11,727 bases of DNA from Fidelibacterota bacterium. GTDB lineage: Bacteria > Fidelibacterota > Marinisomatia > Marinisomatales > TCS55. The notes beneath the pieces are model-generated. The model made no database searches and was not told where the DNA came from. It was given only the letters and a program-made list of their open reading frames with translations. Where the stretch lies: assembly GCA_046861385.1 (NCBI GenBank), contig JBHHTW010000049.1, forward strand, positions 1 to 11,727, read 5' to 3'. A program made the position numbers and the translations under genes. This document shows, piece after piece, positions 1,173 through 11,634 of the stretch; within the stretch, counting starts at the first letter, position 1; each line of letters opens with the position of its first letter.

Positions 1173-1256
1173 TACCCGGGGCCGGACTCGAACCGGCACG
1201 GTATTGCTACCAATGGATTTTAAGTCCATAGTGTCTACCAATTCCACCACCCGGGC
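1173..1256 (-). tRNA. tRNA-Leu(TAA)
   Basis: Reverse complement GCCCGGGTGGTGGAATTGGTAGACACT-ATGGA-CTTAAAA-TCCAT-TGGTAGCAATACCGT-GCCGG-TTCGAGT-CCGGC-CCCGGGTA: full cloverleaf, long variable arm, anticodon TAA, no encoded CCA. Confidence 0.97.
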
Positions 1257-1355: not shown

Positions 1356-1429
1356 AGGCGTCGATCGGATTTGAACCGATGAATGACAGTTTTGCAAACT
1401 GCTCCCTTGGACCACTTGGGTACGACGCC
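1356..1429 (-). tRNA. tRNA-Cys(GCA)
   Basis: Reverse complement GGCGTCG...GCAGT-TTGCAAA-ACTGT...ATCGG-TTCAAAT-CCGAT-CGACGCC-T: anticodon GCA, U discriminator. Confidence 0.97.
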
Positions 1430-1896: not shown

Positions 1897-2243
1897 TATT
1901 TCGTAATTCTGCTTTTTGGGATTGTTTCGGGGAGGTTCATCATTTTCTCAATTCGGCTTTCATTTATTTTTTGTACTATTGATTTTCCCTGCTTTATTAA
2001 ATCATTTTCCAGAAGATCCGGTTTATGCAAGAGCAAGAATAATTTCTCATCAGCGTTCAAAATGGATTGAAGATCTGACGATTTTATGATGCTGGTCATA
2101 TAATATTCGTAATCTTCCAAAACATGCTCCTCAATTCTGGTTGCAATATTGTAATAATGCTTCTTGACTTTAATTGGAACAGAATTTTCCTTGGCATTTA
2201 AACATAGAGTCGAAATAAACCCTAATAAGATTACCAATCTCAT
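1875..2243 (-). CDS. Hypothetical exported protein
   Basis: Signal peptide MRLVILLGFISTLCLNA; ATGA overlap with the upstream peptidase stop. Confidence 0.75.
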   Translation of the reverse strand: MRLVILLGFISTLCLNAKENSVPIKVKKHYYNIATRIEEHVLEDYEYYMTSIIKSSDLQSILNADEKLFLLLHKPDLLENDLIKQGKSIVQKINESRIEKMMNLPETIPKSRITKYYFSSIN

Positions 2244-4324
2244 TCCAAACCCATACTGCGCATAAAAGCGTTTGAATTGGGTTCACGACCTAAAAAGTCC
2301 TTCACCAATGTTAATGGATCTTCTGTTCCTCCTTTTTCAAGAATGATTTTACGATAGCGCAATCCTTCATCTTCATTCATAACACCTTTGTCCTCAAAAA
2401 TGGAAAACATATCCTGTGCGTAGACTTCCGACCATTTATACCCATAATACGCCGCGCCATATCCGTTTAAGTGACCAAATGCGGCTTCCATGTGCGTGCC
2501 TTCTTGATAAGGATAGAATGTAATTTCATTCTGTAATTTTGAAACAATGTCTGTCGTCGTTTCATCTCCATCGGGATTAAATCCATCATGAAGTGTAAAA
2601 TCCAAAAGACCATAATAGACTTGCTGGAGTGCTTTAGTCCCGGAATTAACATTTTTTGCTGCCAGCATTTTATTGAGCAATTCATCCGGTATGATTTCAC
2701 CCGTTATATAATGCTTGGCGAATAATGCCAATGATTCTTTCTGCCAGACCCAATTTTCAAGCATTTGAGATGGGGCTTCAACGAAATCTCTTGCCACCGA
2801 TGTACCGGCATATTCCATCAGGGGTGCTTTAGTTAAAACACCGTGAACTAAATGACCAAATTCATGAAAATAAGTTTCAACGTCGTCATGGGTTAATAAT
2901 GAAGGTTCCAGCTCCGTTGGCTTTGGGAAATTGCAAACCAATGCTGTCGCCGGTTTAGTATATCCATCTTTTGTCATCTTCCCCATAGTGACAGAGAAAG
3001 CTGCTGCATGTCCATATTTATTCGCTCGTGGAAACATGTCCAGGTAGAACCGTCCGATTAATTCATCTGAAACATTATCAAATACTTCGTACATCAATAC
3101 CTCTTCGTGCCAGACCGATGGATTTTCTACCTTTTTGAATTTCACATTAAACAATTTTTGATAAACCGTAAACAATCCGTTTGTCACATTGCTGAATTCA
3201 AAATACTGTCGAACTTCTTCTGGATCAAGATCATATTTTTCTTTCAATAATAAATTTTCATAAAATCCGGCTTCCCAAGATTGGATAATCGAAGCTTTCT
3301 GACCGATTCTTTCGGATTTTATTGAAAGCATTTCTCCAATGTCCATCTCTCCTTTGACCCGGAGTTTGTCTTTTAGATCATTTTCAAAATTCCATACATT
3401 TTCCGGATTTTTTGCCATTCTGTTTTCAGTTCTATATTCAGCATAAGTCTGATATCCAAGAACCTCTACTAACTCCCTTCTTTTCCGAATAATATTATTT
3501 AAAACATCCAAATTTGACTCTACCGCTCTGTTATTAAATTTAAATTTCAAATTTTTCCGGGCATCATCTGATTTAGAATATTTCATAAACGGTCTGTAGG
3601 ATGGATAGGACATATCGATCGCGTATGTGCCATTATTTTGCAATCTAACCTTTTTATAATTTTCAGGAAGACCGGTGATTTCATCTTCAGATACAAAAAG
3701 TGTGTCTTGAAAGTTAGAAATATTTTTATTAAAGGAAAGCCCAAGGTCTGCTAACTCTTTAAAAATAGCCTTGACGTGTTCCCTTTTCTCTTTTGGAAGT
3801 CCAAATCCACTGCGTTTATAATCCAGGAGTTTGTCTTCCAAATACTTCTTTTTATACCCCATGAGTTGATTCGCCTCTTTTGACCTGGAATAAGTAATTA
3901 CTGCATTGTATAAATCTTCATTTAATGAGAAATCAGTTAAATATTTTTGAATTTTACGACTGGATTCTAATCCTTCATCCCGGATTTTTTCGTTCGTGTG
4001 GGTTGAACCCATTAAGTAACCCGGACTCCATACGGATTCAATCACTGCATAAATATCATCAATTCGTACCATAGTATTGTTGAAAGTTCTTTCATTATCA
4101 GGAATGAGTAATATTTCATCTAATATTTGATCGGACACGTCTAAAACATATCGGGTGGCTCTTTCAATATGTCCAGGACGTAATTTTGCAAAATCATGTA
4201 CTTCATTGAATTCCACAATCAATGGATTGGATGACGGTCTTCGAACTTGTGGGTGGTTTTTTGTTAAAACAACCAGAAATACCGCTAAACCAATGATGGC
4301 TACGGTAAGAATATTACGGTTCAT
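2240..4324 (-). CDS. M3A-family zinc oligopeptidase (thimet oligopeptidase / oligopeptidase A-like) with N-terminal anchor or signal
   Basis: YFHEFGH zinc motif, DFVEAPSQMLENW, GRFYLDMFPR and GYGAAYYGYKWSEV are typical of M3A. Confidence 0.95.
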   Translation of the reverse strand: MNRNILTVAIIGLAVFLVVLTKNHPQVRRPSSNPLIVEFNEVHDFAKLRPGHIERATRYVLDVSDQILDEILLIPDNERTFNNTMVRIDDIYAVIESVWSPGYLMGSTHTNEKIRDEGLESSRKIQKYLTDFSLNEDLYNAVITYSRSKEANQLMGYKKKYLEDKLLDYKRSGFGLPKEKREHVKAIFKELADLGLSFNKNISNFQDTLFVSEDEITGLPENYKKVRLQNNGTYAIDMSYPSYRPFMKYSKSDDARKNLKFKFNNRAVESNLDVLNNIIRKRRELVEVLGYQTYAEYRTENRMAKNPENVWNFENDLKDKLRVKGEMDIGEMLSIKSERIGQKASIIQSWEAGFYENLLLKEKYDLDPEEVRQYFEFSNVTNGLFTVYQKLFNVKFKKVENPSVWHEEVLMYEVFDNVSDELIGRFYLDMFPRANKYGHAAAFSVTMGKMTKDGYTKPATALVCNFPKPTELEPSLLTHDDVETYFHEFGHLVHGVLTKAPLMEYAGTSVARDFVEAPSQMLENWVWQKESLALFAKHYITGEIIPDELLNKMLAAKNVNSGTKALQQVYYGLLDFTLHDGFNPDGDETTTDIVSKLQNEITFYPYQEGTHMEAAFGHLNGYGAAYYGYKWSEVYAQDMFSIFEDKGVMNEDEGLRYRKIILEKGGTEDPLTLVKDFLGREPNSNAFMRSMGLE

Positions 4325-4347: not shown

Positions 4348-4683
4348 TTAATTACTTAAAATTTTGTATGCGTAAAATATGAAAATGGCTGACGTCGTAC
4401 AATAAGCACATGACACAGTAAATCCTGTCAGTTTCTCTGAATGTTCAAAATCTTTCTCTAATGTTTTATCATTAATCTGCTGAAATATTTTTTTCCCATT
4501 TTCTTCCTTCCTGCAATTCCACATATCCATGATGTATTGAGGCATTTCCTTTACACGAATTGTGCGCATCCCTTCGTTTTTGGCTCGATTGATTAAGTCA
4601 GAATTACATGGAGATTCTTTAATTGTATCTTGAGAAAATCCAAAAGTGGAAAGAATAATCAATACTTTGATACAATTTACCAT
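4348..4683 (-). CDS. Hypothetical exported or membrane protein
   Basis: Signal-like N-terminus ending GFSQ, hydrophobic C-terminus; overlaps the upstream stop by 7 nt. Confidence 0.7.
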   Translation of the reverse strand: MVNCIKVLIILSTFGFSQDTIKESPCNSDLINRAKNEGMRTIRVKEMPQYIMDMWNCRKEENGKKIFQQINDKTLEKDFEHSEKLTGFTVSCAYCTTSAIFIFYAYKILSN

Positions 4684-5342
4684 CCATACACCAAACTAAA
4701 ACTAAAAAGAGGCATATCGGAAATATCGATATCAGGTCCTTTAATGGCTTTTCCGTGAAATTTCCAACTATCACTTTTGTAGTATGTTTCCAAAAAGCCA
4801 ATTTTACCGTCAATCGCCAAAAATGGTTTCACATAGTATCGAACTCCTATGCTGCTGGTCAAACCTAAAAAAGTTTTAGTCATATCGTCCGTATCCGATA
4901 CTTTGATTCCGGAATTATTGAATTCAACCATTAAACTATCCCAAGCTGCACTGGATTGGGATGAAACCAAAGATATTTTTCCGGAATTGATCATCGGCGC
5001 CAAGGTAAAATTCAATTCGAATTTTTTTCGTATATGAAAAAAGGTTTCAATGCTGATCGCTCGATAGCGGAAGGATCTTTTAAAGTCTTCTCCGGAATAC
5101 TTATCGCTGGTAAATGCCGTCCATTGATTATAACCGACCCGGGCATTGGAGTAAAATTGATACGCAAATGATGCGTGTAACATCACGCTTTCAAAAAATC
5201 CCCTTTTGGGGAAAGGACTTTTTGCAAAGGATTTATAATTCGGTGATGCATAACCAAATCCCAAACTACCGCTGAATTTTGGCTGGGCAGTTAAAACGGA
5301 AACTGTCAAAAACAGTGAAACACCTATAATTAATTTTCTCAT
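4677..5342 (-). CDS. Probable small outer-membrane beta-barrel protein
   Basis: Signal peptide, amphipathic beta-strands (SSIGVRYYVKPFLAIDGKIGF), C-terminal beta-signal-like FSFSLVYGW. Confidence 0.75.
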   Translation of the reverse strand: MRKLIIGVSLFLTVSVLTAQPKFSGSLGFGYASPNYKSFAKSPFPKRGFFESVMLHASFAYQFYSNARVGYNQWTAFTSDKYSGEDFKRSFRYRAISIETFFHIRKKFELNFTLAPMINSGKISLVSSQSSAAWDSLMVEFNNSGIKVSDTDDMTKTFLGLTSSIGVRYYVKPFLAIDGKIGFLETYYKSDSWKFHGKAIKGPDIDISDMPLFSFSLVYGW

Positions 5343-5388: not shown

Positions 5389-6252
5389 ATGATGCGCTAT
5401 TTATTTCTATTCATGACTATCACAATGTGTTTTTCTCAGGAAGTGAAACATATTATTGTTAAACTGGATGGTTCAACCTCTGTCGGTTTGTTGGATTCTA
5501 TGACGACAGATACGGTTTTCATAACAACCGAAATGGATTCTTCCCAATCCACTATTCCTTTAAAAAACGTTTATTATATTTATAATACCTTTGGAAAACT
5601 TTATTATATAAGTACCCATTATGAGGATAGAATTGATCTAATCGAAGAACGAAGCGGTTTTATTGTTAAAATAAATAGTGATACGCTATATTATTCCAGT
5701 ATTGAAATCGACAGACGCATGGATCAGCCCTATATCTACCTATCCTCACCGGATGAAGAACTGGCACTTAAAGTTTCATTGTTCGATATCCACCTAATTC
5801 GCATAAATACATCATATATGGAACATTCCGTACGCCGGGGAGCCATCACCGGAACATGTCTAATGCTGACAGGGATGGCACTGCAAACATTATTTAATTA
5901 TGGAGATCGGAGAGATAAATTACCAAACAATGCGTCATTATTTCAGAAGGCGAAAACCATGGGGGGAGCCGCTGGAGCGAGTATCATGAACTTTATCCCC
6001 GGCGCTTCATCCGCCGGAAATCAATACCAATCTGTTACAATTATTTTACCTCTCTCGACAATTGGATGGATGATTTATGATTATATTTATGATAAACGAA
6101 CCCATTATTTTCGTCCTATGCTTCGTGATGAACAATTCCCCCATTCAATGTTTTGGTTTAACCCAAAACGGATAATAAAAAACAAAGTTGGAAAAACAAT
6201 TCAAAAAGTTAGAAACGTAATTCAACCATTAACAGAAAAATGGCCATTTTAG
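5389..6252 (+). CDS. Hypothetical exported or membrane protein
   Basis: 287-aa ORF with signal peptide (…MCFSQ) and hydrophobic Gly-rich segments in the C-terminal half. Confidence 0.8.
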   Translation: MMRYLFLFMTITMCFSQEVKHIIVKLDGSTSVGLLDSMTTDTVFITTEMDSSQSTIPLKNVYYIYNTFGKLYYISTHYEDRIDLIEERSGFIVKINSDTLYYSSIEIDRRMDQPYIYLSSPDEELALKVSLFDIHLIRINTSYMEHSVRRGAITGTCLMLTGMALQTLFNYGDRRDKLPNNASLFQKAKTMGGAAGASIMNFIPGASSAGNQYQSVTIILPLSTIGWMIYDYIYDKRTHYFRPMLRDEQFPHSMFWFNPKRIIKNKVGKTIQKVRNVIQPLTEKWPF

Positions 6253-6556: not shown

Positions 6557-7621
6557 TTATTCAGGTGCCTTAATTCTACCAAAACCTTCATAGGTTAAAC
6601 TACCGAGATATAAATATCCATTATGCTCTTCCACGCTAGTGATAGGTGAAAATGATTCAGGAGAAGGGTCTTGAAGATTATGAATCACATTGCCGTTTTC
6701 ATCAATTCCCATTATAAAACCATACCGATCCGGAGCCGGCTGCATCGATTCCGGTAATCTCATAATCATTTTACGGATAAATGGTTTATCAGCTAAATTA
6801 TCTATGATATCTTTTCTTTTTGATGGGAATGCCACCCAGAAGACACCTTTTCCATTGGACGAAATTCCATCAGGAATCCCAGGTAAATTTTCCATAAGCA
6901 CTTCAGATGTCCCTGTTTTCTCTCCGGCAATCCATATTTTTTGAATTCGATATTCAGATGTTTCGTTCACTAGAACAAATTGTTGATCCGGGCTGACAGC
7001 TACGCCATTTGCAAAATAGAGCTTATCTTTAATGACTTTGGTTTGTTTTGTTTTTGGATAATACGCTAATAATCTTCCATAAGCTCTATGCTCAATGATA
7101 TCAGCTCGATAATTGGATATTTTCCAATTCGATGAGGCATCGGTGAAATAAATAGTACCATCTTTTGCAATATCAACATCATCAGTAAAAACAAAAGGAA
7201 CCCCGTTCGCTTCTGTTGTTAAGGAGGTAATTTGTCCGTCAGGGGCAATGGATAAAAGACCCTTTTTTGCGTCACAAACAATGAGGTTCCCCTTATGATT
7301 AAAATCCATTCCTAGGGGTCGTCCTTCTGTGTTAACGAATTCCTGCCCATGTTGTCCATTTTTATCATAGCGCATAATTCTACCATCTTCAAAAGGTGCG
7401 TAAATTCTCCCTTCGTTGTCCACATCGATGTCTTCCGGACCGATTCCATCGCCTCTGGCAAGGATTTCCGTGGTCTGCAGATATGAGTTGGGCGAATAAT
7501 CTCCAGTTAATTCCGGTGCAGGCATGGGTTCCCAGACAGCGGGGTTAATCTCTACAGGCCAAAAACATAAATATAGGATGATAATAAGAACAACCATTCC
7601 AATGGATTTTAATATTTTCAT
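6557..7621 (-). CDS. Strictosidine synthase-like / SMP-30-gluconolactonase beta-propeller hydrolase (APMAP-like)
   Basis: GPEDI, GRPLG, IYFTDAS, LYFANGVAVSPD, NLPGIPDGI and LYLGSL motifs; N-terminal TM segment. Confidence 0.93.
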   Translation of the reverse strand: MKILKSIGMVVLIIILYLCFWPVEINPAVWEPMPAPELTGDYSPNSYLQTTEILARGDGIGPEDIDVDNEGRIYAPFEDGRIMRYDKNGQHGQEFVNTEGRPLGMDFNHKGNLIVCDAKKGLLSIAPDGQITSLTTEANGVPFVFTDDVDIAKDGTIYFTDASSNWKISNYRADIIEHRAYGRLLAYYPKTKQTKVIKDKLYFANGVAVSPDQQFVLVNETSEYRIQKIWIAGEKTGTSEVLMENLPGIPDGISSNGKGVFWVAFPSKRKDIIDNLADKPFIRKMIMRLPESMQPAPDRYGFIMGIDENGNVIHNLQDPSPESFSPITSVEEHNGYLYLGSLTYEGFGRIKAPE

Positions 7622-8418
7622 TTCTTTATCCTCTTTTTACTTAATTCCGGAACACCAAATATCCGTATAACTGCATCACCTAATTTAGGGGATATTTGTC
7701 CAATCGCTAATAGCGGTTTTATGGGACCGTGATTTACAATGATTTCTGCTTTATTTTTCCTGATTGCTTTTAAGACAGCATCGGCGACTGCCTGAGGTTT
7801 TGACGAACCCAATAACGGAGGCGGATCTACACCCCCGTCAAAAAACATTCCTGTGTCTGAGATATACCCGGGACAAATAACCGAAATTTCTACATTCGTA
7901 TCAACCAATTCTTGTCGCATTCCATCCGTCCACATGATCAGACCTGCCTTGCTTGCAGAGTATGGTGTACTAAAAGGTAATCCTTTCTTCCCTGCTAAAG
8001 ATGCGATGGAAACAATATGCCCGCCCCTTTCCAACATTGATGGCAATAATAATCGTGTTAATTCCATTGGAGCATAAAGATTAATATTCAAAATATCAGA
8101 AACTTCATTTGCTGTATAATTCTGAAATGGCTTATATAATTCAATCCCGGCATTATTTACCAATATATCGATATTTCCACGGATGGCTTTGGCATTATCA
8201 ACCAGTTTTGATAATGCTTGAATACTATTTAAATCAAACGGGAAAGAATAGAATTCACCACCCTCATTTTCAATATCTTTTTTTACCAGGTTAAGGTTCT
8301 CCTGTGATCGAGCTACTCCGATAACAAATGCTCCGTTTTTCGCCAAAGTTTTTGCGATGTATGATCCAATTCCCCGGGAAGCGCCGGTTAATAATACATT
8401 TTTATTTTTTATGTTCAT
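7618..8418 (-). CDS. Short-chain dehydrogenase/reductase (SDR)
   Basis: TGASRGIG, LVNNAG, catalytic YSASK and ICPG; ATGA overlap with the downstream gene. Confidence 0.95.
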   Translation of the reverse strand: MNIKNKNVLLTGASRGIGSYIAKTLAKNGAFVIGVARSQENLNLVKKDIENEGGEFYSFPFDLNSIQALSKLVDNAKAIRGNIDILVNNAGIELYKPFQNYTANEVSDILNINLYAPMELTRLLLPSMLERGGHIVSIASLAGKKGLPFSTPYSASKAGLIMWTDGMRQELVDTNVEISVICPGYISDTGMFFDGGVDPPPLLGSSKPQAVADAVLKAIRKNKAEIIVNHGPIKPLLAIGQISPKLGDAVIRIFGVPELSKKRIKK

Positions 8419-8608: not shown

Positions 8609-8767
8609 TTGTTTAAAAAGCTATTTATTAAATTTCTTGTTGTGGTGGGTATTCTCATCTTTCTATCGAAAATGTATCCTGATAATGCGATTATCCAGAT
8701 AATTGTGGAAAATTATAAGAGTATTGCATCATCAATACTGGAAAAATTGAGTTCATTCTTAAAATAG
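8609..8767 (+). CDS. Possible small membrane protein (52 aa, TTG start)
   Basis: MFKKLFIKFLVVVGILIFLSKMYPDNAIIQIIVENYKSIASSILEKLSSFLK; basic N-terminus plus hydrophobic helix; only a weak AAGG upstream. Confidence 0.45.
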   Translation: MFKKLFIKFLVVVGILIFLSKMYPDNAIIQIIVENYKSIASSILEKLSSFLK

Positions 8768-8855
8768 AATTGGCATCGAATTGTCTATATCCTATTTCAT
8801 CTATTAATGATTAATATCTTCTGTGCTACTATTATCACTTACGAAAAATCATAAA

Positions 8856-9893
8856 ATGAGAACGTTTTCCTTTATATTAGGATTATCCCTCCTCTCCACT
8901 CTAATTGGACAACAGCAATTTCCTTGGAGCGATCTGAATTATCATGAAGCGCTTCAGAAATCCGGTGACAAAATTATTATGATGGACTTCTATACAGAAT
9001 GGTGAAGTTGGTGTAAGCGGCTGGATGCCGATGTATTCCCCGATGAGCGAGTAATAACTTTCGCAAACAATAATTTCACTAGCCTGAAAATTGATGCAGA
9101 AAAAGGTGAAGGACCCGATTTAGTAAAACAATTTAAAATCCCCGGATATCCCACATTACTTTTTGTGAATGCCCATGGAAATGAAATTGACAGAATAATT
9201 GGATACCGACCTGTTGACGAATTTTTAGAAGAGATAAAACGTATCAACAATAATCGAGGTACTATTGAAAACCTCACTGATCAGTTGAAAGCAAATCCTA
9301 AAAATAACTCCCTCCTACTGAAACTGGCCGAAAAGTGGGATCAACGCGGTTCCCACCAACAATCTTTGAAATATTGGGAATTGTTGCTGCATGAGAATGA
9401 TAATCGTAATGACTTAGCACAGGTAAGAATTGCCCAAAATAGAACAAAAATAGAAAACACTCCCGAATTCCTTCTAGAATTAATTGATAATTACCCTGAT
9501 AATAAATATTTACCGGATGCTTATAGGAGTTTACAAAATTATTACCGGTCTGAGCACGATACAATTGCTGAAGCTAAAACGTATGAGAAACTTGTTACTA
9601 TATTACTAGAAACAGATAAAGTATCTGCCGGAGACCTAAATGGATATGCCTGGCGTATGACTCAGTTAGAATTGAACCTGGACGATGCTCTGGAAAAAAT
9701 CCGGCAAGCCGTAGTGTTGATAGCTGACGAAGATGAAGAAACACAAGCACAAACCATGGATACTGAAGCAGAGGTTTTATGGAAACTGGGAAGACCAACC
9801 GAAGCAATTGCCATTATGAATCAATGTATTCTATTACAACCGGAAGACGATTACTATAAAGAACAAAAAGAGAAATTTGAGACCTCTCTTTAA
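8856..9893 (+). CDS. Exported thioredoxin-fold + TPR protein, probable selenoprotein (Sec50, UxxC), 345 aa
   Basis: One frame across TGA 9003-9005: IIMMDFYTEW-U-SWCKRLDADVF...LKIDAEKGEG...FKIPGYPTLLFVNAHGNEIDRIIGYRP (thioredoxin fold), then helical repeats (LNGYAWR, MDTEAEVLWKLGRPTEAI). Signal peptide from ATG 8856. Confidence 0.88.
9006..9037 (+). promoter_or_regulatory. Candidate bacterial SECIS element
   Basis: CGGC (9018-21) - loop TGGAT - GCCG (9027-30). The apical loop starts 16 nt after UGA and has G at position 2. Weak lower stem TGTA 9012-15 / TGTA 9032-35 using G-U pairs. Confidence 0.6.
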
Positions 9894-9936
9894 ACTATAA
9901 TTCAAATTTCTGCTTTAACAGTCTTCATTCGACCTT

Positions 9937-9987
9937 GCGGAAGTTTTACTTGTCCGCCGAAGCCTTGGCGTAGGAGGAAACTTCCGC
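9937..9987. repeat. Nested palindrome (REP-like, possible bidirectional terminator) between convergent genes
   Basis: GCGGAAGTTT / AAACTTCCGC is a perfect 10-bp inverted repeat enclosing TCCGCCGAAGCCTTGGCGTAGGAGGA. Confidence 0.65.
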
Positions 9988-10001
9988 CGTGTTGATTACA
10001 A

Positions 10002-10844
10002 TTAGATTACCATCTCCAGTCCGGTGTGAGCGTACTCGCAACTCATGTCGACTCCAGCCCCACTAATGATGCTTCGAGCCTTCTTGGCCATCTCATCCAC
10101 CTGATCATCCGTTCGTTCCTGATTCAAATGAAACAGGATCAAATGGCCTACCTCACTATCGATTCCAAGTCTCACTGTATCCAAGTAAACTGAATGCCCC
10201 CACCCTTTGGAAAAACTATCGTATTCCTCCGGTAAATATTCGGCATCATGCAACAAAACATCTACTCCATATACAAACTTTATATATTCTTCAATCGGTT
10301 TGGCATTGGGTTGGGGATAGGATAGTTCGTTATCCGGGAATATCGCAATGCTGGTTTCACCTTCATAAAGGCGAAACCCATATCCTTTATTGGGGTGATT
10401 CAAAGGAATACTTTGGCAATGCAATCCAGCAAATTCAAATTCAGGAAGACATTTTTTGTCAAATTTTAGTGTAGCCAAAACAGCACTCAAATCTACCGGG
10501 AAGAACGGAGCGCGCATCGTTTCCTTGAGGATTGATCTGATTGATTCCTGCGCAAATGTGCAACCATGAAAATGCAGTAAGCTGTCTTTGCTGTATAGTG
10601 GCTTGAAAAATGGAAAGCCAATTAAATGATCCCAGTGGGCATGGGAGAATAGAAAGTGAAACTCGGTCCTGCCCTCTTTTAATAGTTTATTCCCTAAAGA
10701 TCTGATACCCGAGCCAGCGTCAATGATGATAGTGTCTCCCCCTTCTGTCTCGATTTCAACGCAAGTGGTATCGCCTCCGTATCGAACAAACTCTTGGCCG
10801 CTTACAGGAATAGATCCTCGTGCTCCCCATATCCTAATTTTCAT
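10002..10844 (-). CDS. Metallo-beta-lactamase-fold hydrolase (RNase Z / PhnP-like)
   Basis: WGARGSIP, YGGDTTCVEI, IIDAGSG, SHAHWDH (HxHxDH), LLHDAEY, GWGHS and LILFH; AAGGAG SD at 10853-10858. Confidence 0.93.
   Translation of the reverse strand: MKIRIWGARGSIPVSGQEFVRYGGDTTCVEIETEGGDTIIIDAGSGIRSLGNKLLKEGRTEFHFLFSHAHWDHLIGFPFFKPLYSKDSLLHFHGCTFAQESIRSILKETMRAPFFPVDLSAVLATLKFDKKCLPEFEFAGLHCQSIPLNHPNKGYGFRLYEGETSIAIFPDNELSYPQPNAKPIEEYIKFVYGVDVLLHDAEYLPEEYDSFSKGWGHSVYLDTVRLGIDSEVGHLILFHLNQERTDDQVDEMAKKARSIISGAGVDMSCEYAHTGLEMVI

Positions 10845-11561: not shown

Positions 11562-11634
<73 letters not shown>

Follow-up and report, generated by a model that had tools for sequence, protein, structure and literature searches.

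The 11,727-nucleotide stretch of DNA analysed here (the window; contig JBHHTW010000049.1 of the Fidelibacterota bacterium assembly GCA_046861385.1, C100 in our numbering) belongs to a 2.43-Mb genome of 104 contigs that is 97.85% complete. On its forward strand, two open reading frames (ORFs), 8823-9005 and 9165-9893, lie in a common frame according to the ORF listing, and translation of 8823-9893 meets a lone stop, TGA 9003-9005, which is flanked by DFYTEW and SWCKRLD and coincides with the first Cys of a W-C-x-x-C thioredoxin motif. If this codon is read through, the frame extends from ATG 8856 to TAA 9891-9893 and comprises 345 residues with the TGA as residue 50; besides this TGA, 8856-9893 contains neither a further stop nor a frameshift. 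The intervening stretch 9006-9164 lies outside every start-to-stop ORF, yet its conservation at the protein level equals that of the remainder of the gene. An earlier reading of the locus, made without database searches (below, the sequence-only reading), had proposed that both ORFs are parts of one protein of 345 amino acids with selenocysteine (Sec) at residue 50 in a UxxC active site. Its coordinates, the shared frame and the sole interruption proved exact on retranslation, length and Sec position follow from ATG 8856, and the intact thioredoxin fold that it had recognized around the motif is borne out by the Pfam Thioredoxin match, which spans the TGA, and by the presence of the G-Y-P-T loop. 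Its interpretation of the TGA as a Sec codon is strongly supported by the Sec machinery of the genome, the orthologs, a downstream hairpin and purifying selection. Indeed, the in-frame TGA almost certainly specifies a genuine active-site Sec in an exported protein of thioredoxin type, which occurs commonly in the marine phylum Marinimicrobia and is routinely split by gene callers, and we hold with high confidence that 8856-9893 is one intact selenoprotein gene, the UGA of which is decoded by SelB and a selenocysteine insertion sequence (SECIS), and that its product is an exported oxidoreductase combining a thioredoxin domain with tetratricopeptide repeats (TPR).

Among 5.8 billion proteins, 186 relatives of the read-through protein were identified, and all source names attached to them were Marinimicrobia or Neomarinimicrobiota. 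Pooling 116 fetched loci and setting aside three that do not cover the codon and 31 duplicates left 82 distinct loci. The sequence-only reading had predicted that homologs carry either Cys or TGA at position 50, and this is what the alignment revealed: 65 loci have TGA and 17 have TGT or TGC, with the TGA forms spanning lineages down to ~35% identity. The occurrence of TGA at the same codon in 65 of the 82 loci puts the observation far beyond chance, and as these are 65 independent assemblies, sequencing error is excluded. Among 41 related genomes, a full-length ortholog is present in 12, with TGA at this codon in eight and TGC or TGT in four. Furthermore, in a survey of the phylum (an even sample of 401 genomes, ortholog threshold E ≤ 1e-30), 152 genomes possess an ortholog; exactly one in-frame TGA was counted by hand in 120 of the 150 matches listed and none in the other 30, four of which stop short of residue 50, leaving 26 Cys-form genomes. 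A scan of species-representative genomes yielded 216 loci, labelled almost all as Marinimicrobia, Neomarinimicrobiota or Fidelibacterota, together with a few metagenome-assembled genomes labelled Lentisphaeria, Gammaproteobacteria or FCB group. One genome of the set (G393; 74% complete, 4% contamination) contains both a Cys-form and a TGA-form copy (C25:17900-18871 and C23:4763-5776), which could be a paralogous pair or the result of a mixed bin.

Selection was estimated as the ratio of nonsynonymous to synonymous substitution rates (dN/dS; Nei-Gojobori method, four closest orthologs, six pairs). Upstream of the TGA (27 codons), the ratio amounts to 0.04-0.17 in five of the six pairs, the sixth being synonymously saturated; downstream of it (294 codons), values of 0.09-0.19 were obtained. 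The sequence-only reading had associated a simple nonsense mutation with relaxed selection downstream of the TGA; instead, selection on these 294 codons is purifying. It had also called for confirmation of the TGA in raw reads. The codon is present in Logan contigs of four runs, the only ones containing the complete sequence, with no differing letter over 8700-9978, but these runs represent one sample, which may be the source of this very DNA, so that the agreement is not an independent confirmation. The search of sequencing runs listed no RNA data set with the sequence.

Twelve nucleotides after the UGA, a small hairpin can be drawn from the stem strands CGGC (9018-9021) and GCCG (9027-9030) and the loop UGGAU (9022-9026). 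A 4-bp stem with a 5-nt loop is found at this fixed distance in all 65 TGA forms, each with four of four pairs (260 of 260 pair positions in the 65-sequence alignment are standard pairs), and the RNAalifold consensus consists of exactly this 4-bp helix and nothing beyond. If the structure is slid by 1-3 columns, pairing drops to 3-74%. Each of the four stem pairs shows two-sided compensatory changes (12 cases), namely CG to UA, GC to AU and GC to UA, plus GU/UG intermediates. These changes alter the encoded residues (RLDA to RLDV, QLDA, WLDA, RLDS or RLDN) while pairing is kept, which points to an RNA-level constraint. Of the pair positions in the 17 Cys forms, only 55.9% are paired; all four pairs are retained in two of them (L111 and L119) and lost in 15. 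The 3' hairpin to which the sequence-only reading had pointed is thus real across the orthologs, although it is tiny and invisible to single-sequence folding. Seven stops interrupt the aligned region of one ortholog, L157, in which the TGA nevertheless persists along with a hairpin (CGUU/AACG) that is doubly compensated; this copy may be decaying or poorly assembled.

In the bacterial SECIS of E. coli fdhF, the UGA is followed at a distance of ~11 nt by a minimal upper stem-loop, the loop of which contains G/U. The hairpin of the window resembles it in lying just downstream of the UGA inside the coding sequence with a spacer of 12 nt, and in its loop, in which the U-G is invariant and the second G nearly invariant. 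It differs in that conservation is limited to 4 base pairs and extends to neither a lower stem nor a bulge, and it has no match in Rfam. We propose that SelB with Sec-tRNA(Sec) would read UGA 9003-9005 as Sec and that this decoding would be guided by the hairpin at 9018-9030 as a minimal SECIS, written into the R-L-D-A codons.

The sequence-only reading had suggested a search of the genome for selA, selB, selC and selD, and all parts of the Sec machinery were found. In the profile search, selA (443 bits) adjoins selB (360 bits) on contig C72, whereas selD (404 bits) is located on contig C97:10536-11462 (+) (locus L010); the tRNA-Sec scored 62.6 bits versus a gathering score of 47 and was identified by ARAGORN as tRNA-SeC with the anticodon TCA. 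The matches for selA, selB, selD and tRNA-Sec all exceed curated cut-offs. Note that selD has an in-frame TGA of its own (SHGSG-U-ACK) and is, judged by this motif, the Sec form of SelD. TGA terminates 359 of the 1205 ORFs of at least 250 codons in the genome and is therefore not reassigned. A genome scan for CxxU/UxxC contexts gave 67 candidates, mostly noise, with two convincing ones. In the first, a 750-aa HdrA-like/MvhD (FlpD) fusion (contig C78:56508-58757 (-), locus L075), the in-frame TGA stands at DCSI-U-ILGPK and precedes a 7-bp hairpin whose loop is GGUC; this fusion is probably a further selenoprotein of the organism. The second, a protein of 678 aa (contig C93:19987-22020 (-), locus L076), combines LVIVD repeats and an AhpC-TSA/Redoxin domain with a type IX secretion system sorting tail; its in-frame TGA is located at FFTGW-U-PVC, and it is probably a secreted peroxiredoxin-like selenoprotein. 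The presence of the machinery, together with TGA at redox motifs elsewhere, implies that several genes of the organism are decoded with Sec. When the whole genome was scanned for hairpins of the 9018-9030 type after an in-frame TGA, five pattern matches emerged; the frame stays open for 30 codons or more on either side only in the 8856-9893 gene, and the remaining selenoprotein genes therefore use hairpins of other kinds.

Table 1. Coordinates of the read-through gene and of its parts in the window, with the evidence for each assignment.
Feature	Position	Strand	Evidence
Complete selenoprotein coding sequence, 345 residues + TAA	8856..9893	+	Full-length orthologs begin at the equivalent ATG (MK...)
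Predicted N-terminal signal peptide, ~residues 1-21, MRTFSFILGLSLLSTLIGQQQ	8856..8918	+	Sequence, alignment; low pLDDT, helix 5-15 in model
Thioredoxin-fold domain, DsbD-gamma-like, ~residues 22-131	8919..9248	+	Pfam, PDB profiles, Foldseek
UGA, almost certainly the Sec codon; residue 50, first and nucleophilic position of U-S-W-C	9003..9005	+	Ortholog codons
TGT, Cys53, resolving cysteine of UxxC	9012..9014	+	Invariant in 34 orthologs
SECIS-like mini-hairpin, within the R-L-D-A codons	9018..9030	+	Consensus structure, covariation
CCC, Pro99, cis-proline of the G-Y-P-T loop (residues 97-100)	9150..9152	+	Invariant in 34 orthologs
All-helical TPR-like superhelical domain, ~residues 137-343	9264..9884	+	Model helices, structural and profile matches

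The Pfam Thioredoxin domain was matched across the TGA over residues 26-128 (E 5.7e-13), accompanied by weak TPR matches at 302-331; Thioredoxin_2 (PF13098; 45.1 bits versus a cut-off of 27) and Thioredoxin_7 were matched in the thioredoxin domain as well. PF13098 is matched by all 34 orthologs of our protein alignment and TPR Pfam families by 20-23 of these 34 family members. In most of the aligned orthologs, the leader ends in a lipobox-like L-x-[AGS]-C; MRTFSFILGLSLLSTLIGQQQ is a putative signal peptide, and its counterpart in most orthologs a putative lipoprotein signal. The AlphaFold model built with the 34-sequence alignment (predicted local distance difference test, pLDDT, 93.1; predicted template modelling score, pTM, 0.82) consists of a thioredoxin fold at ~22-131 and fourteen helices that follow it up to residue 343. 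In Foldseek, the thioredoxin domain reached TMt values of 0.65-0.80, and the C-terminal part matched consensus-TPR and OGT structures; residues 136-265 match designed consensus TPR proteins in profile comparison as well (E 9.8e-19). Invariant or near-invariant positions in the 34 orthologs are U/C50, C53 and P99, and, within the TPR domain, the motifs NGYAWRM and MDTEAEVLWKLGR as well as C324.

The product would thus be composed of a signal peptide, a DsbD-gamma-like thioredoxin domain with W-U-S-W-C, and a TPR superhelix of ~210 residues. It is most likely an extracytoplasmic thiol-disulfide (selenosulfide) oxidoreductase, the TPR domain of which binds a client or partner. In the mechanism that we propose, the protein would act outside the cytoplasm, where its selenolate would attack client disulfides or oxidised thiols and the TPR domain would hold the protein that serves as client or partner. 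The genome encodes a complete DsbD (alpha-TM-gamma) with a TlpA-like neighbour, plus VKOR, whereas, at a completeness of 97.85%, neither DsbA (PF01323) nor ResB (PF05140) was detected. Its DsbD would be a plausible electron source.

The nearest solved structure for the thioredoxin domain is that of a putative disulphide isomerase of Bacteroides thetaiotaomicron (2kuc; E 2.3e-27, 38% identity, TMt 0.80), and Chlamydia DsbH (2ju5) is similar too (TMt 0.68). However, both are single-domain Cys proteins without TPR. The gamma domain of DsbD (PDB 1uc7, 2fwe-h, 1vrs) matches residues 28-128 with a profile E of ~1e-18 and TMt values of 0.65-0.74, and it shares the W-C-x-x-C context and the extracytoplasmic location (predicted in the case of the window protein). 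In contrast to DsbD, the protein has neither the DsbD_N (alpha) nor the DsbD_TM domain, has Sec in place of Cys and carries a TPR tail; it reaches 58.4 bits with the DsbD model NF001419, in the gamma region only, versus a cut-off of 330, and the complete DsbD of the genome is encoded elsewhere. Similarly, the model for TsoB, a rhodanese/DsbD fusion-like selenoprotein (NF045694), is matched with 68 bits versus 805 and only at profile positions 471-571, and that for thioredoxin TrxA (TIGR01068) with 41.7 bits versus an equivalog score of 96.8. In fact, no NCBIfam model reaches its cut-off for the read-through protein, the best ones being the TsoB tail and DsbD. The best whole-length Foldseek match (E 2.4e-6, 325 columns) is E. 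coli YbbN/CnoX, the "chaperedoxin" (PDB 3qou; Salmonella homolog 3qdn). Both proteins possess an N-terminal thioredoxin fold followed by C-terminal TPR. However, the TM-score is 0.24-0.31 with a root-mean-square deviation of 22-23 Å, the domains being arranged differently; YbbN/CnoX is outside the best 60 sequence-profile matches, whereas the thioredoxin domain of the window protein is DsbD-gamma-like, and the latter protein has a predicted signal peptide (with a lipobox in orthologs), while CnoX is cytoplasmic. The likeness of the model to YbbN/CnoX therefore lies in the same domain order and does not imply common ancestry.

Thioredoxin-fold selenoproteins with UxxC, among them the "thiol:disulfide interchange protein" family (PF13098 / cd02953), have already been catalogued, with a representative named in PMC13188914, and the sequence-only reading was right in calling such proteins known. 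The window protein resembles this family in its Thioredoxin_2 match and DsbD-gamma-like sequence, in having Sec as the first residue of UxxC and in the existence of Cys homologs, and differs from it in the additional ~210 TPR residues and the lipoprotein/signal-peptide leader; it is placed here by domain score and the U-S-W-C motif. In the texts describing this family, the terms TPR and tetratricopeptide do not occur, and neither does "Marinimicrob" in that of the review. Likewise, "thioredoxin" and "Marinimicrob" are both absent from the text on BSepDB (PMC13326102), although supplements or database tables of PMC13188914 and PMC13326102 may list the family. The phylum is named in PMC8318568 only in lists of recovered genomes. 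Our full-text literature search retrieved no paper tying Marinimicrobia (or alternative names of the phylum) to a specific selenoprotein, and none combining a bacterial UxxC thioredoxin selenoprotein with tetratricopeptide, although supplements may list the family. The decoding mechanism is textbook knowledge and the class of UxxC selenoproteins into which the thioredoxin domain falls has been catalogued before; what is new, as modest additions, are the TPR fusion, the phylum-wide spread, the minimal covarying SECIS and the repeated Sec/Cys switches.

To follow these switches, a maximum-likelihood tree was calculated from 79 of the 82 distinct sequences with the Sec/Cys residue masked and was rooted at its midpoint; two partial sequences (L135 and L158) and L157 with its seven stops were left out. 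Ten changes of the Sec/Cys state are needed on this tree, at least seven of them forced by well-supported branches. Cys forms appear singly or in small groups within Sec clades, and the two that keep the hairpin, L111 and L119, are sisters of Sec forms. The midpoint-rooted tree, from which the direction is read, suggests that Sec is ancestral and was repeatedly replaced by Cys. Of the 401 genomes sampled from the phylum, 305 possess selA; it was found in 113 of the 120 TGA-form genomes, and the other seven are 60-87% complete (hand comparison). We also considered Cys forms as markers of the loss of the Sec machinery. This was rejected, as every Cys-form genome possesses selA; the Cys forms do not track machinery loss. 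At the level of families, f12 (genomes of ~1 Mb) has selA in 1 of 37 genomes, the ortholog in 0 of 37 and CcmE in 35 of 37; in f26 all three are absent (0 of 33 each), and in f25 selA and the ortholog are absent (0 of 2 each). Entire streamlined lineages of the phylum thus appear to have given up the use of Sec.

The gene is poorly represented in public databases. The sequence-only reading had expected that standard annotation would miss it, and in fact the public record for this very gene (P0002) is the 242-aa downstream ORF. Among the best 120 of the 186 homologs, query coverage is below 89% in ~106, as read by hand from the coverage values; these short records probably begin past the TGA in most cases, although some may be cut by contig ends. 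Among seven fetched records, P0003 is truncated, four carry Cys at the Sec position, and two full-length ENA records, P0007 and P0029, carry W (FYTDWWSWCK and FETEWWGWCD), probably due to a gene caller that reads TGA as Trp. As no NCBIfam model reaches its cut-off, automated pipelines keep missing the gene.

Several other explanations of the locus were weighed. The TGA might be a nonsense mutation that breaks a former Cys thioredoxin gene. Standard callers do see two ORFs here, public records hold the downstream part, and L157 may be a decayed ortholog. A decaying gene, however, would hardly have TGA at the same codon in 65 of 82 loci down to ~35% identity, dN/dS well below 1 on either side of it, no second stop or frameshift, and a hairpin that co-occurs with the TGA and shows compensatory changes; we consider a pseudogene exceedingly improbable. 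Alternatively, two products could be made, a secreted peptide of 49 residues and a TPR protein translated from an internal start such as GTG 9165, with which ORF 9165-9893 indeed begins. Callers choose varied internal starts among the orthologs (lengths of 191-305 aa), and this variation itself speaks against a genuine one, as does the fact that such a start would halve the thioredoxin fold and remove the signal peptide. Moreover, 9006-9164 encodes highly conserved protein although it is in no start-to-stop ORF, and the entire chain forms one confident two-domain model, which makes the separate products extremely unlikely.

It is also very unlikely that the UGA is decoded as an amino acid other than Sec (Trp, Cys or Gly), be it by a near-cognate or suppressor tRNA or owing to an altered code. 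Cys is evidently acceptable for function, given the 17 Cys forms, and W stands at residue 50 in P0007 and P0029, but the latter is most simply explained by the TGA=W table of the gene caller. The number of long ORFs ending with TGA argues against reassignment, the complete Sec machinery is encoded in the genome and selA is present in 113 of the 120 TGA-form genomes, and the TGA is located exactly at the redox Cys, together with a hairpin that is mostly lost in the Cys forms. A further proposal leaves the protein a selenoprotein but assigns it to cytochrome c maturation, as a CcmG-like reductase fused to a CcmI-like TPR chaperone. PF23914 (the TPR domain of CcmH/CycH) is indeed matched, weakly, by 5 of 34 members, and the genome has the System I genes ccmE, ccmF, ccmA, ccmB and ccmC plus a short CcmH without the TPR part. 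However, the gene does not adjoin ccm genes, and the ortholog is present in 31 of 38 genomes of family f17, 18 of 30 of f28 and 6 of 8 of f15, where CcmE was found in 1 of 38, 0 of 30 and 0 of 8, respectively, while f12 and f9 have CcmE (35 of 37 and 12 of 13) but no ortholog (0 of 37 and 0 of 13). As the ortholog and CcmE are distributed independently across families, the dedicated role was rejected; we regard it as improbable.

Some observations weigh against a SECIS-decoded, exported selenoprotein and have to be set beside the evidence for it. Folded alone, 8995-9075 is no better than its shuffles (z = 0.20; 105 of 200 as good), and so it is the ortholog comparison that carries the hairpin; an Rfam search of 8950-9120 with E up to 10 found no SECIS family, only two sub-threshold snoRNA chance matches. 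A stem of 4 bp is short for a bacterial SECIS. The stem positions are mostly near-invariant, and part of this conservation could reflect selection on R-L-D-A, although Cys forms do vary there. In the shuffle control of the covariation, 0 of 500 shuffles reached the observed values, a result that overstates the significance because the aligned sequences are related. The TGA was placed base by base in the 65 fetched loci rather than in each of the 120 survey rows, and selA is present in 26 of 26 Cys-form genomes. Export is predicted from the leader sequence, the gene neighbourhood in the window and at the ortholog loci gives no functional clue, and actual selenium insertion at residue 50 is inferred.

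The neighbours of the gene in the window encode an M3 peptidase (2240-4324 (-)), a strictosidine-synthase/SGL-like protein (6557-7621 (-)), a short-chain dehydrogenase (7618-8418 (-)) and a metallo-beta-lactamase (MBL)-fold protein (10002-10844 (-)), while ORFs 4348-4683, 4677-5342 and 5389-6252 have no Pfam match. There are also three tRNA genes (1173-1256 (-), 1356-1429 (-) and 11562-11634 (-)), the first of which gives a sub-threshold match to the tRNA-Sec model (39.2 bits) and probably encodes a tRNA with a long arm. The selenoprotein gene 8856-9893 (+) and the convergent gene 10002-10844 (-) are separated by 108 nt, which fold at -33.3 kcal/mol and contain a strong GC-rich hairpin (9929-9995) that is single-copy in the genome. 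Logan contigs of three runs break at 9949-9979, where the summed depth rises. The hairpin may act as a bidirectional terminator; alternatively, it may be a repeat that is also carried by other organisms of the sample. At 15 of 35 ortholog loci (within L026-L069; from reading of the sequences), accA-like and 4HBT-type thioesterase-like genes are located just upstream on the same strand; this synteny is absent in the genus of the window.

Sec use is widespread in Marinimicrobia, with selA in 305 and the ortholog in 152 of the 401 sampled genomes, and with a Sec-flagged family model, hundreds of database entries would be put right. The many natural Sec/Cys pairs and the very small covarying SECIS make this family a compact study system, which could serve to study the retention and replacement of Sec and the minimal needs of SelB. 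A broader proposal, possible but rather doubtful, is that the protein is the founding member of an undescribed family of exported thioredoxin-TPR lipoproteins of Marinimicrobia (SAR406 / Fidelibacterota) that was Sec-dependent from its origin and represents a periplasmic counterpart of CnoX, with the selenolate forming mixed selenosulfides with TPR-held clients. If this holds true, its SECIS of 13 nt, accommodated in four codons, would rank with the smallest ones that occur naturally in bacteria, and Sec would have given way to Cys in this family seven times or more, in genomes that retain the Sec machinery. Marinimicrobia are abundant in the dark ocean, and under the same proposal, the family could account for a sizeable biological selenium demand there.

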